A stretch of 64,000 bases of DNA from a virus. Lineage: Duplodnaviria; Heunggongvirae; Uroviricota; Caudoviricetes. Of this stretch, positions 3,139 to 44,162 are shown piece after piece (within the stretch, counting starts at the first letter, position 1; each line of letters opens with the position of its first letter). A program made the position numbers and the translations under genes. The notes beneath the pieces are model-generated. The model did no database searches and had not been told where the DNA came from. It saw only the letters and a program-made list of their open reading frames with translations. The stretch lies in the IMG/VR virus record IMGVR_UViG_2728369393_000001; one strand, given 5' to 3'.

Positions 3139-3750
3139 TCAACTGGCTGTAGAAAGTTGTTTTTCAGGCCAGTTGAGATCTGGTGCCGTGGTTAAATCCA
3201 TCGCGTTCAGCTCGTCTATATAATCTAGCACGGAGTTAAGCTGCGTGGTTTCTGCCTGCGTCAACTTCCGTCCAGCCCGTAATTTCAACTGAATCAGACT
3301 AATGGAATCCATCGCAGTATCAATCAATGACTGACGTTTTGTTTCTGCTGCCTCTACAGCTGCACTATGTTGAGCCTCAGTATCAACCACCCATTTCTCT
3401 CCATCCCATTTGTCGTATGGTGTTAGCGGGGCGATAGTGGTTGTATTTTCCGGATAGTCACCCAACACCGTGATTTCTTCGGGATTCCCAGTGTCAATGC
3501 TATAGACAGTTTCGCCACGATGATCTGGCACATACTCCCATGAACTTAAATCCTCTGAACGGAGAATCGCATAACCTGCTTTATGTGAGCCTGGAGCATC
3601 CAAACAAGAATTTGCCGGAATACCAACGCCAACAGCAAGATATTCAGTTGATGCAGAAATATATTCCCGATTACCACCATCATAGTTATAAACGATAATG
3701 TTTCCTGCCTGTATGGCTATAAGTTCGCTATTTAATATCGCATTATCCAT
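3139..3750 (-). CDS. tail fibre assembly protein (Tfa / U-like chaperone) belonging to silent cassette 1
   Basis: 203 aa, ATG; directly downstream of cassette 1 on the minus strand; Tfa-like conserved C-terminal region. Confidence 0.7.
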   Translation of the reverse strand: MDNAILNSELIAIQAGNIIVYNYDGGNREYISASTEYLAVGVGIPANSCLDAPGSHKAGYAILRSEDLSSWEYVPDHRGETVYSIDTGNPEEITVLGDYPENTTTIAPLTPYDKWDGEKWVVDTEAQHSAAVEAAETKRQSLIDTAMDSISLIQLKLRAGRKLTQAETTQLNSVLDYIDELNAMDLTTAPDLNWPEKQLSTAS

Positions 3751-37944: not shown

Positions 37945-37961
37945 CAATACATTAGAGCAAT
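37945..37961 (-). promoter_or_regulatory. C1 operator-like site upstream of lpa
   Basis: minus strand ATTGCTCTAATGTATTG, 13/17. Confidence 0.45.
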
Positions 37962-39891: not shown

Positions 39892-40281
39892 TTAAATAAC
39901 CGGACAATCATCAAACTCCCCACTTCGGGCATCATTGATGACATGAGTGATCACACCAAAAACAGCATTACTGCCCGTGCATCCATCGTCATCTACTGGT
40001 AACGCCTCTTTCTTCCCGGTGCTTAAATCCTCCAGGTGCTGGCGCGGATACTTCCTGTATCTCTTTATGCGATATTCACCCTCCATAGCGCACACAAGCA
40101 GCGAACCATCAACTGGAGTAAGCGAAGAATCAACCACCAGCAAAGCACCCTGCAATATTCCCTCACGGTGATGGCTATCAGCTGCCCGCATGAAGTAGGT
40201 TGCTGATGGATGTCTAATTATCTGCTGATCAAGAGAAATTCGGCTTTCAACATAATCCGCCGCAGGAGAAGGGAAACCCAT
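39892..40281 (-). CDS. humD: UmuD-like SOS mutagenesis protein (LexA/S24 peptidase fold)
   Basis: 129 aa; S24-like region; LexA box 22 bp upstream. Confidence 0.75.
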   Translation of the reverse strand: MGFPSPAADYVESRISLDQQIIRHPSATYFMRAADSHHREGILQGALLVVDSSLTPVDGSLLVCAMEGEYRIKRYRKYPRQHLEDLSTGKKEALPVDDDGCTGSNAVFGVITHVINDARSGEFDDCPVI

Positions 40282-40302
40282 AGCGTTTTACCTCAAAAAT
40301 AC

Positions 40303-40318
40303 TGTTTATCTGTACAGT
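40303..40318. promoter_or_regulatory. LexA (SOS) box between divergent humD and the 40456 gene
   Basis: CTGTTTATCTGTACAG = CTGT-N8-ACAG. Confidence 0.7.
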
Positions 40319-40455
40319 ATACATTAAAGAAGCACCTTTGGTGCAAACGCGTTATGTACATCAACCACCGCTGATGATTTTTGTGCGCTTTGCTACTATT
40401 CATCACCGCGGGATCAGCGTAACCTCGTTGCCAATCAGTTAATAAGGAATTAGCT

Positions 40456-41040
40456 ATGCCTAATCGCATTCCTCTCGATCCTGTATTGCCCAAAAATTTT
40501 GACTGCACTCCTAACGAGAAACGCTCTAAAGCTCAGCTGGACGCCTGGTGGGACCATCCATATGGGGTTACACAACCTGACGGGAAAATTGTAGTTTATT
40601 GTCTGAATGGTGGGGCGTGGGACCGTCCATCCGTGCTTTGTTTGGCAGATAACTATGATGAAGCCTGTGAACTTGCCGAAAGACAGCAGGCAAGCTGGGT
40701 AAAAACACGGTCTGAACCGACATTCATGTTTTCAAAAGAACCGCCATTTATACTGGCGAGGATGCCGCAGCGACCGGATCATCAACAAGAAATTGTTGCT
40801 GAATTTTCCTCAAGGGATGAGATGAATCTCTTCTCATTAAAGCAGGAAGAAAGGGATCGCGTCGAAGTGTCTCCAACTCTCGACCACAACCGGATGAACC
40901 TGGCCCAGCTCGCCTGGTACAGCAAAGAATTGGAGATGTCTATCGCCCGGCTTGAAAACGAAAAAGCCGCTATCCAAGCCCAGCATGAAGTAGTTCTGAA
41001 CCGGATTAGAGAAATGCAAAACGATAACAGGGGATTTTGA
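40456..41040 (+). CDS. hypothetical protein divergent from humD (possibly LexA-regulated)
   Basis: 194 aa, ATG. Confidence 0.45.
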   Translation: MPNRIPLDPVLPKNFDCTPNEKRSKAQLDAWWDHPYGVTQPDGKIVVYCLNGGAWDRPSVLCLADNYDEACELAERQQASWVKTRSEPTFMFSKEPPFILARMPQRPDHQQEIVAEFSSRDEMNLFSLKQEERDRVEVSPTLDHNRMNLAQLAWYSKELEMSIARLENEKAAIQAQHEVVLNRIREMQNDNRGF

Positions 41041-41397
41041 ATGGCTAAAATCGAGTACCATCGCGATCGCGGTAATTACCTGGAAATATACGATCATGAA
41101 TCTCTTAACGATATCAACGATGCGTTATATGAATACTGTGAAAAAACGAGCGTCACAGATGCACCTGATGCATTTGTCGAGCTACCGGTATATCTCCGCG
41201 ACATCTATGCAATACGAACACCGCCCGTATCGGTGATTCACATTGGCTATGTCCGCCTGTCCATCGAAGAAGATGAAGATCGTTATATCGTGCGCCACTA
41301 TACATTGGACAGAAAAGAGCTTCCCAATGAATGGAACATGAGTAATTTCTACAACGGTGAATATGGCTTAAAATCCGCTAATAATTTACGGTCATAA
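41041..41397 (+). CDS. hypothetical protein
   Basis: 118 aa, ATG immediately after previous stop. Confidence 0.4.
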   Translation: MAKIEYHRDRGNYLEIYDHESLNDINDALYEYCEKTSVTDAPDAFVELPVYLRDIYAIRTPPVSVIHIGYVRLSIEEDEDRYIVRHYTLDRKELPNEWNMSNFYNGEYGLKSANNLRS

Positions 41398-42472
41398 TCT
41401 ATACAGGCATGTATAACAACAACGAGCCTATTAGCTGTCAACAACGTTATTTTCTCAAATAAGAAAAAGCAGAAAACAAATTGTTTAAGGTCACAAATTG
41501 TGGCCTTGATGGAGGAGGGAGGCTTATTGGCTATGGCTAAAAATCAAATTAGACACTTCATGTTGCTGTAGCTCATCAAGATCCGAGGCCACAAAACCTT
41601 TTCCGAAAAACTTCACAAGTAACTCACTAGCCGCATCATTGTCACCTATTACACGAAAGTCATACGGCAACGTCGCAAGTTGACGATGTAATCCTGCTGA
41701 GAAAGTCGAATCTAACAGCGCCCAGAATTCCCACCGCAGGATAATACTCGCCTCTTAATACTGTATATATGTTGTTACGATATGTTTTTCTGTCTCTAAA
41801 AAAAGATGTTAATAGAATGCTAACCATTGAAGGGGATAAAAATATACAATTCCAACAAACGTTATTTTTAACAATTTTTTTCTTTGCGTTGACTTTCCCG
41901 GACACCTTGTCTGACCGAAGGTGCGCGAAAGCCACTTTTTCCTTCCTGAGTTATCCACAAAGTTATGCACTTGCAAGAGGGCCATTTTCTACATATTGTG
42001 GTGGCTAACAGATGAAATGAATGTAGATTAATTGAAGATAAGGAGAAAATTTGAGATGCAATCATGACGTTAATAGATAGGGTCTGCATTACAGACCCCA
42101 CCCGCATCAAGGAATTAGCCGTTCCCTGATGTTTTTCCGAAAACATGTGCCGTAAGCTCACGTTAACGACTTTCATTCACCGAATCCAACTATATAGGGG
42201 TTGGGTTTCTACGTCAACGTGAGCAAGTGCACCTTTACATTTGACAAGGAACCACCTGAATGAACGCTTTTTTTCAGTTCCTGAGTGCATTTTTAGATGC
42301 GCCTATTATTAGCCAGATTCTGGCTATTATCCTCATCATCGTTTTGATTTTGCTTTTAAGGTCAGTAAAAAATGGAATTATGCACTGGCTTACTTAATGT
42401 TTCAGTGAAACATTAAAATCTCCTTGATGTGGAAACAATCATTTTCTGTATGTGCTGGTGGGCACCTGTAGT

Positions 42473-42835
42473 TCAGCTTTCGTTGGCATTTAACTTCGTC
42501 TTTGCTTTCTCCACCAGCAACTTCCAGATGCCTATTTCATTAGCAGCCGCCTTGATGGCGGCATAAAAAGCATCTTGCTGATCGTAACGCTGGATCTGTT
42601 TTTTCAGTTTTGCCTCCACCAATTTAATTTCATTACGTGCTTTCTGAAGCCGCATCACCGCCCGGTTACGTCTGTTCTTGTATAGCGTGTTAATCTCTGA
42701 CAATTGCTTTAATTTACCAGCCTGACTGTGGATTATCGCCTCCCTGGCTTCTGCCGTGCGTCTCATCTGATCTCTTAAGAGTTCACCGTTTTCGATAATT
42801 CTTTCAAGGTGTTTGATGTGATCTGCAACTCTCAT
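42473..42835 (-). CDS. hypothetical coiled-coil protein
   Basis: 120 aa. Confidence 0.4.
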   Translation of the reverse strand: MRVADHIKHLERIIENGELLRDQMRRTAEAREAIIHSQAGKLKQLSEINTLYKNRRNRAVMRLQKARNEIKLVEAKLKKQIQRYDQQDAFYAAIKAAANEIGIWKLLVEKAKTKLNANES

Positions 42836-43506
42836 ACTTCACCCTCGCTTGTATCACCAGCGTCCACCAACGACAATAAAGCCCTGGCCATCTTATGAAC
42901 CAACAGTGCATCAATAATGCCAAGCGTATGCCCCGGCTTAATGTTTAATGCTGCCTCAAGATGACACCTTTCCAGACCGCTTTTCTCGGCTTGTTTATGA
43001 TGATATGGCGTAATAACGTCGCCCAAAACACGGCTAATTCTTTCTCGTAATTGCTGGGTGCCAGCACACTTGATCGCTGTATCGTGGAGACGGTTAACCA
43101 GTTCGCGATAAACATGCGGCTTAATGCGGATACGTTCACCGGTGACGCCCTTTCCTGGCGCTGGCACCGAACTATCCGGAATATCCGGATAGTTGCCAGC
43201 CTCGTAAGCTACCCGCAGCCAGTGCATGAATGTTTCAGTGGACACACAACCACAGTCCACATCGATTTTTCCGCGTTGCTGTTCCAGCCACTGCTCAAAA
43301 TTCAATCTACACGTATTACTTTTATGTTGCTCTTTTTGTCTCAAGGCCAGCACCTGTTGGGCCAGTTCCAGAACGATACCGGGTGACGCTAACCTCTCAA
43401 ATTCCAATAAATAGTTTGCGTCAGGATGACAAGTAGCCTCGCCTGCAAAAAATACCAATTGCTGTAAGTATGCTGTCGTTAGAGTAGTCATTTCTTTTTG
43501 CGCCAT
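42832..43506 (-). CDS. hypothetical protein
   Basis: 224 aa, overlaps neighbours by 4-19 bp (operon-like). Confidence 0.45.
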   Translation of the reverse strand: MAQKEMTTLTTAYLQQLVFFAGEATCHPDANYLLEFERLASPGIVLELAQQVLALRQKEQHKSNTCRLNFEQWLEQQRGKIDVDCGCVSTETFMHWLRVAYEAGNYPDIPDSSVPAPGKGVTGERIRIKPHVYRELVNRLHDTAIKCAGTQQLRERISRVLGDVITPYHHKQAEKSGLERCHLEAALNIKPGHTLGIIDALLVHKMARALLSLVDAGDTSEGEV

Positions 43507-43862
43507 TTCTTTTCACATTCCTTAGTCCATTTTTCAATGTTCATTTTGGCAATATCAGTCATTCCATCACCTAAGAAATACTTTTTCCGGTACGTCTTGC
43601 ACTTAAACCACACTACAACAGCCACCAGCCAGAAAATAAAAGGCCATACGGCAATACCAACTCCAGCCGCGATAAAGCCCAATATCCATAAATGAAGCTC
43701 TCCAACTTCTGTTTCCGGCAATATTCTTAAAGAATTAAACAGCAGGCTGAACGAATGGTCGTATGCATTGGCAGTATAAGACATGCAATCCATATAATTA
43801 AAGTCATAGCCTGCGGCTGCCGCCCATAATGGGCGGTCAAGAAAATGTTTTAGTGTCATCAT
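43488..43862 (-). CDS. membrane protein
   Basis: 124 aa; central hydrophobic helices, Lys-rich C-terminus. Confidence 0.4.
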   Translation of the reverse strand: MMTLKHFLDRPLWAAAAGYDFNYMDCMSYTANAYDHSFSLLFNSLRILPETEVGELHLWILGFIAAGVGIAVWPFIFWLVAVVVWFKCKTYRKKYFLGDGMTDIAKMNIEKWTKECEKKWRKKK

Positions 43863-43868
43863 ATTAAT

Positions 43869-44162
43869 TTAAGGTTCAGACCAGTTATCTTCAATAGCAA
43901 TGCTTAATCTTTGTAGCCATTCTGCTAATTTCAGCATTGCTTCTCTTTCGCTTAAACCACACGGAAAATCATCAAGCGATATTGTTGGCTTGAAGTTTCC
44001 CAAATTATCCATTTCAACGGTCAGATTTTGCTCCAGAACGGTATTTCTTACGCGGCTATTGTGCCGAAGCAAATATACTGAACGTGATTTATTGGTTTTG
44101 TGGTCGAACGTATATTCGGTAAGTATCATCTGACTTCCGCCATGATTATTACCGCGCCACAT
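43869..44162 (-). CDS. hypothetical protein
   Basis: 97 aa. Confidence 0.35.
   Translation of the reverse strand: MWRGNNHGGSQMILTEYTFDHKTNKSRSVYLLRHNSRVRNTVLEQNLTVEMDNLGNFKPTISLDDFPCGLSEREAMLKLAEWLQRLSIAIEDNWSEP

Follow-up and report, generated by a model that had tools for sequence, protein, structure and literature searches.

An AT-rich gap of a P7-type P1-like phage-plasmid: a mosaic recombination scar beside a conserved small-gene module of possible type I toxin–antitoxin character

Among type I toxin–antitoxin (TA) loci, hok/mok is marked by the coupling of a leader to an open reading frame (ORF) and tisB by a standby site. The described system closest in layout to the locus reported here is ldr/rdl of Escherichia coli, in which a small hydrophobic peptide is encoded after a long leader and an antisense RNA gene lies opposite the 5′ part of the transcript; the gene of the small RNA (sRNA) faces the 5′ end there (PMC2887945). 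In the Ldr/Fst signature, a conserved Trp stands immediately behind the membrane helix, and a cluster of charged residues comes next (Fozo et al. 2010, PMC2887945). Here we analyse a gap of about 1 kb (positions 41400–42472) in a 64,000-nucleotide (nt) stretch of Caudoviricetes DNA (IMG/VR record IMGVR_UViG_2728369393_000001, hereafter the window), which derives from a P7-type Punavirus, a P1-like phage-plasmid. Taken as one statement, it is fairly probable that the gap consists of a recombination scar and a functional small-gene module. By analogy with the systems above, the module may be an unrecognised type I TA-like unit of the P1 and SSU5 families, in which a peptide of 45 amino acids (aa), driven by an nrdA-type promoter, would be checked by a cis-antisense RNA derived from the promoter PupfN; this last proposal is a tentative one, and on balance rather unlikely.

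A megablast search with 41300–42600 gave 99.8% identity to phage P7 (AF503408), 99.7% to MH422554 and 99.6% to SJ46, while homology to P1 (96% identity) begins at 41921 and extends rightward only. A preliminary description of this DNA had called the gap ORF-poor and AT-rich, and this was borne out: its GC content is 39.2% against 48.4% for the whole window, which places it in the lowest 0.7% of 1073-nt windows. The further statement that no convincing ORF is present does not quite hold, since a plus-strand ORF of 45 codons has an identical length in both known clades of the segment. The features of the gap and its left-hand neighbour are collected in Table 1.

Table 1. Positions of the features found in and beside the gap (window coordinates).
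Feature	Position	Strand	Description
upf93.6	41041-41397	+	118 aa, PHROG 5797, function unknown; P7-type substitute for P1 hot
Hairpin	41487-41507		Inverted repeat AAGGTCACA-aat-TGTGGCCTT directly past the remnant stop codon; terminator-like, follows the intact toprim gene in PhiR41_1
Toprim/DNA-primase-like gene remnant	41524-41735	-	~90% nucleotide identity to PhiR41_1 XSB42472
Empty IS903 target site	41652-41660		CACGAAAGT; uninterrupted here, its 9-bp duplication flanks IS903 in P7
SSU5-type umuD-like gene, 5′ end and upstream region, dead	41734-41860	-	Alignment to phage Cyrano upstream of the S24 peptidase gene
E. coli nrdA promoter copy	41858-41996	+ (nrdA orientation)	93% identity to the chromosome 117-257 nt upstream of the nrdA ATG
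Conserved leader	42004-42259	+	Upstream of the 45-aa ORF; several hairpins
Predicted antisense RNA	42066-42182	-	Three hairpins: 42169-42137, 42131-42105, 42103-42075
Sigma-70-like promoter	42189-42217	-	TTGACG-17 nt-TATAGT, 10/12 consensus; corresponds to the predicted PupfN of P1; inside the leader, points left
45-aa hydrophobic ORF	42260-42397	+	MNAFFQFLSAFLDAPIISQILAIILIIVLILLLRSVKNGIMHWLT; intact, Shine-Dalgarno AAGGAA at 42246-42251

The right third of the gap, which is shared with P1, is conserved. Other P1-like plasmids carry the segment at about 41920–42460 at ~79% identity, as does an SSU5-like plasmid in which its neighbours differ (clade 2), so the module moves between P1-like and SSU5-like backbones with varying left-hand neighbours. 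The length, start and stop of the 45-aa ORF are the same in P1 and in clade 2, where the peptide reads MIVFFQFLSAFLNAPVLSQVLAIVFIVVLIWFFKSVINRGVRWLI. Between the clades the 45-codon frame has accumulated 33 substitutions with no insertion, deletion or stop codon, and the ratio of nonsynonymous to synonymous substitution rates (dN/dS) is 0.41. The ORF is already annotated, without a name, in SJ46 and by the Prokaryotic Genome Annotation Pipeline (PGAP) in P1-type plasmids (WP_000123562.1); it occupies 138 of the 1073 bases of the gap, so that an intact annotated gene does lie here, over a small part of its length, while no RNA family of Rfam was matched at E ≤ 1.

For the encoded peptide a single membrane helix is predicted, and its tail RSVKNGIMHWLT is basic/polar; the grand average of hydropathy (GRAVY) is 1.56, and over 19 residues hydropathy peaks at 2.95. 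It shows the traits of type I toxins, which are hydrophobic, have fewer than 60 aa and combine a predicted membrane helix with a C-terminus that is polar or charged. Its relatives were sought by a word-indexed search, by HMMER against 1.84 billion representatives and by tblastn of phages, and further by pattern and tblastn scans over genome, viral and metagenome contigs. These yielded the same two clades only, all from phage-plasmids of Escherichia, Salmonella and Shigella, and thus added no sequence variety to the covariation analysis. Pfam, NCBIfam, PHROGs and PADLOC gave no meaningful match (best phrog_1184 at E 0.058, the rest at chance level). The sole non-exact database relatives of the peptide are versions of 43–68 aa with altered C-termini. 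They resemble frameshifts or insertions after residues 31–37 and could be sequencing errors or the natural inactivation of a harmful peptide.

The leader upstream of this ORF contains an exposed strong Shine-Dalgarno sequence AAGGAG (42040–42045), a mini-ORF (42056–42067), an ORF of 21 codons (42064–42129) and a long inverted repeat (42156–42168 with 42212–42224). Identity between the clades reaches 93–97% at 42050–42079 and 42140–42199, compared with 63–80% across the 45-aa ORF. The 21-codon ORF was considered as a conserved peptide and rejected (dN 0.21 > dS 0.08); therefore, the constraint on the leader there does not act on a protein. In the predicted fold of the full-length mRNA, the Shine-Dalgarno sequence of the 45-aa ORF is paired (unpaired probability ~0), and the upstream AAGGAG is open.

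Both hexamers of the promoter-like site on the opposite strand, within the leader, are invariant in both clades. The minus-strand RNA that would start from it (42182 to ~42066) is predicted to fold at −43.2 kcal/mol (z −4.9), against −29.1 (z −3.3) for the plus strand of the same bases. The minus-strand fold is the stronger because several pairs are G-U on that strand only, and two of the stems are strand-specific. In clade 2 the minus-strand RNA keeps the same three hairpins (−37.5, z −4.1). In the alignment, a single pair is compensatory (U-A to C-G), three one-sided changes are compatible and four cells are broken; the differences between the clades in helix 2 fall within the loop. Two further pairings were rejected. 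Trans pairing of the antisense RNA with the start region of the 45-aa ORF was no better than in shuffled controls, and a 5′–3′ fold-back of 42102–42113 with 42421–42432 is a single 12-nt match close to chance expectation in 1 kb and is kept in part only in clade 2.

Upstream of the leader lies the copy of the host nrdA promoter, which each of the 5426 complete E. coli genomes matches in its chromosome at 90–95% identity. It includes two DnaA boxes, TTATCCACA (41951–41959) and TTATGCACT (41963–41971). Reading of the sequence assigned the −35 hexamer to TTGCAA (41971–41976) and the −10 hexamer to a diverged TATTGT (41994–41999; TATCTT on the chromosome), from which transcription would start near 42006. 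The homology to nrdA fades at the −10, and the sequence beyond is unrelated to the chromosome. A simple promoter scan gave this promoter no score. The copy is not new in itself: the P1 GenBank entry M95666 already annotates an ‘nrdA-like promoter’ and a ‘dnaA box’, and the P1 genome record notes the segment too. At chromosomal nrdAB, box-bound DnaA activates or represses transcription depending on its level and bound nucleotide (PMC8203912). By analogy, the phage copy may fire rightward and respond to DnaA. Two imperfect direct repeats tie the nrdA-like region to the start of the 45-aa ORF (41927–41951 with 42262–42286; 25 nt, 72%) and to the region past the ORF (41983–42004 with 42440–42461; 22 nt, 77%); both may be due to chance.

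Based on these results, we suggest the following scheme for the module. The nrdA-like promoter would give an mRNA with a structured leader of ~250 nt, followed by the coding sequence of a membrane peptide with a single helix. The opposite-strand promoter within the leader would give a stable antisense RNA of three hairpins, which may pair with the leader and thereby limit how well the mRNA for the peptide is translated or how stable it is. The sense promoter may be modulated by DnaA.

The likeness of this scheme to described systems is one of layout. Compared with ldr/rdl, the module has no Pfam match to Ldr/Fst, no Rfam match to rdlD and no tandem copies. The Ldr/Fst signature is not reproduced either: Trp43 is present in both clades, but the basic residues (R34 and K37, or K34, R39 and R42) precede it and nothing charged follows. 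The buried Shine-Dalgarno sequence of the ORF and the open loading site far upstream, in the region that the antisense RNA would cover, recall hok/sok and tisB/istR-1 in the predicted fold, whereas Pfam gave no homology to Hok/Gef or TisB. Between the end of the 21-codon leader ORF and the 45-aa ORF lie 130 nt, so that direct coupling of the mok/hok type is impossible. Unlike in tisB/istR-1, no LexA box controls the module, because the nearby one is broken.

A different unit is found downstream of an nrdA-like promoter in the SSU5-like phage Cyrano (OV696614, 3262–3725), and it looks even more like a type I TA system. It includes a 20-nt direct repeat, GCC(A/G)TAAGTATCTGGCGACT, at 3334–3353 and 3507–3526, and a 27-aa ORF MVNLLFKIVPPMFAIIKAIIEYVNQRP (~3602–3685) behind a GAGG motif. 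A perfect bidirectional terminator is located at 3268–3302 and another terminator at 3698–3722, after the 27-aa ORF. The 10-mer GTGCCGTAAG is common to the Cyrano unit and to the leader in the window (42146–42155), where it stands at a similar distance from the ORF.

The preliminary description had also proposed that the gap may hold regulatory or small-RNA features. The copy of the host promoter with its DnaA boxes and the predicted structured antisense RNA speak for this, so that the proposal is plausible; the scan for structured-RNA families that had been called for, run at E ≤ 1 over both strands of 40000–44000, detected no Rfam family. Given the conservation of the right third, we lean towards the view that the module is functional in some way. 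That it is a true pair of a toxin and an antisense antitoxin is a possibility to which, judging by analogy, we give limited credence, and several observations tell against it. The −10 of the sense promoter is weak, and it is weaker still in clade 2 (TACTGT or TACCGT). None of the described toxin families (Hok/Gef, Ldr, Fst, TisB, Ibs, ShoB and others) was matched in Pfam (E ≤ 1), NCBIfam or PADLOC. The similarity to LdrD is a local match of 15 residues (pairwise E 0.002; motif L-x-A-P-[IV]-I-x-x-I-L-A). A small hydrophobic peptide need not be a toxin, and the above dN/dS over 45 codons is moderate coding evidence only. The covariation of the antisense RNA is not significant (79 of 500 shuffles reached the observed value) and comes from two clades only. 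The last hairpin is not followed by a U-tract terminator that would define the 3′ end of this RNA, and the negative Rfam result counts on the same side. Finally, among the papers searched, none dealt with transcripts, small RNAs, toxicity or a toxin–antitoxin function of the P1 segment. In P1, upfN and upfO, two of the ORFs annotated on the opposite strand, were non-essential in a CRISPR interference (CRISPRi) screen, and a deletion survey cited there lists upfM, upfN and upfO all as non-essential (PMC10695390); this neither supports nor excludes the module model.

Other explanations must be weighed against this one. The entire kilobase might be neutral debris, the 45-aa ORF and the hairpins persisting only as the copies are recent relatives. 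We consider this unlikely. The restriction to two clades, all in phage-plasmids of Escherichia, Salmonella and Shigella, the non-significant covariation, the non-essentiality of the annotated P1 ORFs of the segment and the few frameshifted or truncated database copies of the 45-aa ORF would be in line with neutrality, but divergence is uneven (93–97% identity in the leader blocks against 54–80% in neighbouring blocks), the 45-codon frame stays intact through its 33 substitutions with hydrophobic residues replaced by hydrophobic ones, and the module is kept on different backbones with different left-hand neighbours. The hairpin block might instead act as an RNA element of the minus strand with no control over the 45-aa ORF, either a terminator, attenuator or processing site between the leftward pmgV-type operon and hot or a trans-acting sRNA. 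The fold is indeed stronger on the minus strand, and in P1 and clade 2 the pmgV-type genes lie on one side of the block and hot, transcribed leftward from a late promoter, on the other. In addition, the Shine-Dalgarno-complementary stretch at 42040–42060 is invariant, and a transcript reaching 42040 would carry the anti-Shine-Dalgarno sequence CUCCUU. Against such an element, the window retains the block though hot is gone, no U-tract marks a terminator, and the 45-aa ORF and the block always occurred together in the copies found. Action in trans on the start region of this ORF is unsupported, as the predicted duplex did no better than shuffled controls. All this makes the proposal an improbable one in our view.

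It is also quite improbable that the functional core is the nrdA-derived segment itself, acting not as the promoter of the ORF but as a DnaA site that ties the plasmid-prophage to the replication cycle of the host. The two consensus-like boxes and the −35 are invariant in P1, P7-type, clade 2 and Cyrano-type sequences while the flanks vary, and at chromosomal nrdAB these promoter boxes are bound by DnaA (PMC8203912). For titration, however, two boxes are a small number, and the geometry of the nrdA promoter (boxes, −35, 17-nt spacer, −10-like hexamer) is retained and always aimed at a downstream unit. As for the minus-strand ORFs annotated in P7 (upf91.3, 91.4, 91.6 and 91.7) and P1 (upfM, upfN and upfO), we regard it as highly improbable that they are the real genes of the gap. 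Mechanical ORFs of 79–102 aa are present here, four of which are those annotated in P7, and the minus-strand frames are open in the window at 37–102 aa and annotated in the reference genomes with predicted promoters. Yet their lengths shift between close relatives, and the upf91.x ORFs are not conserved in the diverged (~79%-identical) copies. UpfN has ~65 aa by the coordinates annotated for P1 (60 aa if counted from its first ATG), 102 aa in the window and 38 aa in clade 2, where the P1 upfN start reads ATG TTT TCG GTA TAA. No counterpart of upfM of at least 30 aa exists in clade 2, and upfM, upfN and upfO are broken or resized there. Moreover, upf91.4 and upfO cross DNA whose E. coli equivalent is the non-coding promoter region in front of nrdA, upf91.7 traverses the toprim remnant and the umuD scar in another frame, none of the minus-strand ORFs has a Pfam match, and PGAP calls none of them, calling the plus-strand 45-aa ORF instead. 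Judged by sequence comparison, upf91.7, 91.6, 91.4 and 91.3 (41660–42290, minus strand), together with upfM, upfN and upfO, are probably annotation artefacts.

The left two thirds of the gap are non-functional debris of illegitimate recombination. The left half is pieced together from parts of other phage-plasmids, and small deletions mark the joins. The stretch 41443–41735 is ~90% identical to SSU5-like phage-plasmids, and base-level alignment shows homology to PhiR41_1 from 41735 down to 41471, including the downstream hairpin. In PhiR41_1, the DNA matching the remnant is the 3′ end of a 174-aa gene adjoining umuD. The remnant comprises 66 in-frame codons (41724–41527) and a stop codon (41526–41524) and aligns to residues 109–174 of the 174-aa protein XSB42472; the homology extends over a further 11 nt at its 5′ edge (41735–41725), which a 1-nt deletion at 41725/41724 has shifted. 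It has no ATG, and the only start proposed by the ORF lister is a TTG that would give 48 aa. The preliminary description had read here a minus-strand open frame without an ATG, preceded by an in-frame stop, and had taken it for a truncated C-terminal fragment. Both points proved right: the quoted peptide was reproduced exactly (...Y*EASIILRWEFWALLDSTFSAGLHRQLATLPYDFRVIGDNDAASELLVKFFGKGFVASDLDELQQHEVSNLIFSHSQ*), the stop lies at 41524–41526 with an in-frame stop upstream, and the product of the intact PhiR41_1 gene ends in the same peptide (...WALLGSTFSAGLRRQLAMLPYDFRVIGDNDAAGESLVKSFGKGFVAPDLDELQPHEVSNLIFSHSQ).

The intact 174-aa relative matches PHROG 849, ‘DNA primase’, at E 9.5e-54 and is named ‘toprim domain-containing protein’ by PGAP; its naming rests on these two sources, as the full-length protein gave no match in Pfam or in a sequence search of the PDB. 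It also matches phrog_17952 (E 1e-34), a 68-aa family called ‘DNA primase’ that covers nothing of the toprim protein but its C-terminal 67 residues. Pieces like the present remnant have therefore been entered as genes in phage records and grouped into a family. In the P1-like plasmid CP063155 the same slot holds an intact toprim gene that converges with lxr; in SSU5-like elements the intact gene stands beside umuD. With the proteins of PHROG 849 (174 aa, in SSU5-like and some P1-like phage-plasmids) the remnant shares the last 66 residues and the downstream hairpin, whereas it lacks the first 108 codons, including the conserved Glu region (‘WITES’), as well as a start codon and a promoter. On this comparison it is a pseudogene fragment and not a member gene of the toprim/primase-like family. 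The hairpin past its stop codon was left unflagged by a simple terminator scan because of its weak T-run. In P7, IS903 is inserted inside the remnant, after the base equivalent to 41660, while the target site is intact here; the remnant is therefore dispensable debris. No insertion sequence or transposon was detected in the gap itself, judging from the ORF list, which contains no transposase-like ORF, from Pfam and from the uninterrupted target site.

To the right of the remnant, plasmid matches at 83% over 41741–41975 overlap the start of ‘S24 family peptidase’ (UmuD-like) genes in SSU5-like plasmids. The umuD-like scar retains a ribosome-binding site, AAGAGG (41756–41751), and its flanks. 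Relative to Cyrano, a 13-nt deletion takes out the ATG, and an 11-nt deletion takes half of the LexA box, so that TACTGTATACACATACAGTA of Cyrano became TACTGTATA (41759–41767) and the palindrome CTGT-N8-ACAG is not intact at this site. The codons that are left, TCCTGCGG, border on the toprim homology at ~41734. On this alignment, the beheaded umuD-like 5′ end joined to the toprim tail is a scar of illegitimate recombination, with neither a start codon nor an intact operator. P7 has an annotated, intact LexA box in the interval from humD to the lxr homologue, and by P7 coordinates its place in the window is 40301–40320; the window's own humD therefore retains its SOS operator, while the SSU5-type copy is broken.

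The gap is very probably a mosaic junction in the pmgT–humD variable region (region 8) of P1-like phage-plasmids, in which it falls (PMC9603915). Its neighbours are genes of phage P1 (Doc, Phd, HumD and a 194-aa Lxr homologue, 94% identical to P1 Lxr); it is flanked by the lxr and upf93.6 genes on the plus strand and by the pmgV-type gene upf90.8 (42473–42835) on the minus strand. The earlier suggestion of a decayed insertion hotspot is thus supported by the published variable region, the IS903 in the P7 remnant and the patchwork left half with deletions at its joins. In P7, the remnant, the nrdA-like segment and the 45-aa ORF are all as in the window; the IS903 insertion apart, P7 differs in its annotation, which lists the four hypothetical minus-strand ORFs but not the remnant, the umuD scar or the plus-strand ORF. 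P1 shares the ‘nrdA-like promoter’, the DnaA boxes, the predicted PupfN and the 45-aa ORF (96% protein identity), and differs in having hot (a homologue of DNA polymerase III theta) and a late promoter in place of upf93.6, the toprim remnant and the umuD scar. For upf93.6, no match was found in Pfam, NCBIfam or PADLOC. The plasmid AP022163 has both hot and a 120-aa gene homologous to upf93.6.

Other P1 control sites were also sought. The C1 operator consensus ATTGCTCTAATAAATTT gave 11 matches (≤3 mismatches) across 17427–56435 of the window, against 0.3 expected by chance. None of them falls within the gap, the closest (37945–37961) lying beside a pdcB-like gene. A pattern derived from the −22 box of LPhot (AAGTTACTT) revealed no late-promoter motif in the gap.

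Most of this gap is therefore ordinary, since the mosaic decay is of a documented kind and the capture of the host promoter has already been noted in the P1 literature. It illustrates the exchange of DNA between P1-like elements on one side and SSU5-like phage-plasmids and the host chromosome on the other. For annotation, the hypothetical genes listed here in P1 and P7 are probably not genes, and the conserved coding unit is the 45-aa ORF on the other strand. If the proposed TA-like module were true, the reference annotations of upfM, upfN and upfO would be on the wrong strand, and P1, a standard laboratory phage whose relatives spread resistance genes, would gain beside phd/doc a second, RNA-based addiction or stress module wired to the replication initiator of its host.

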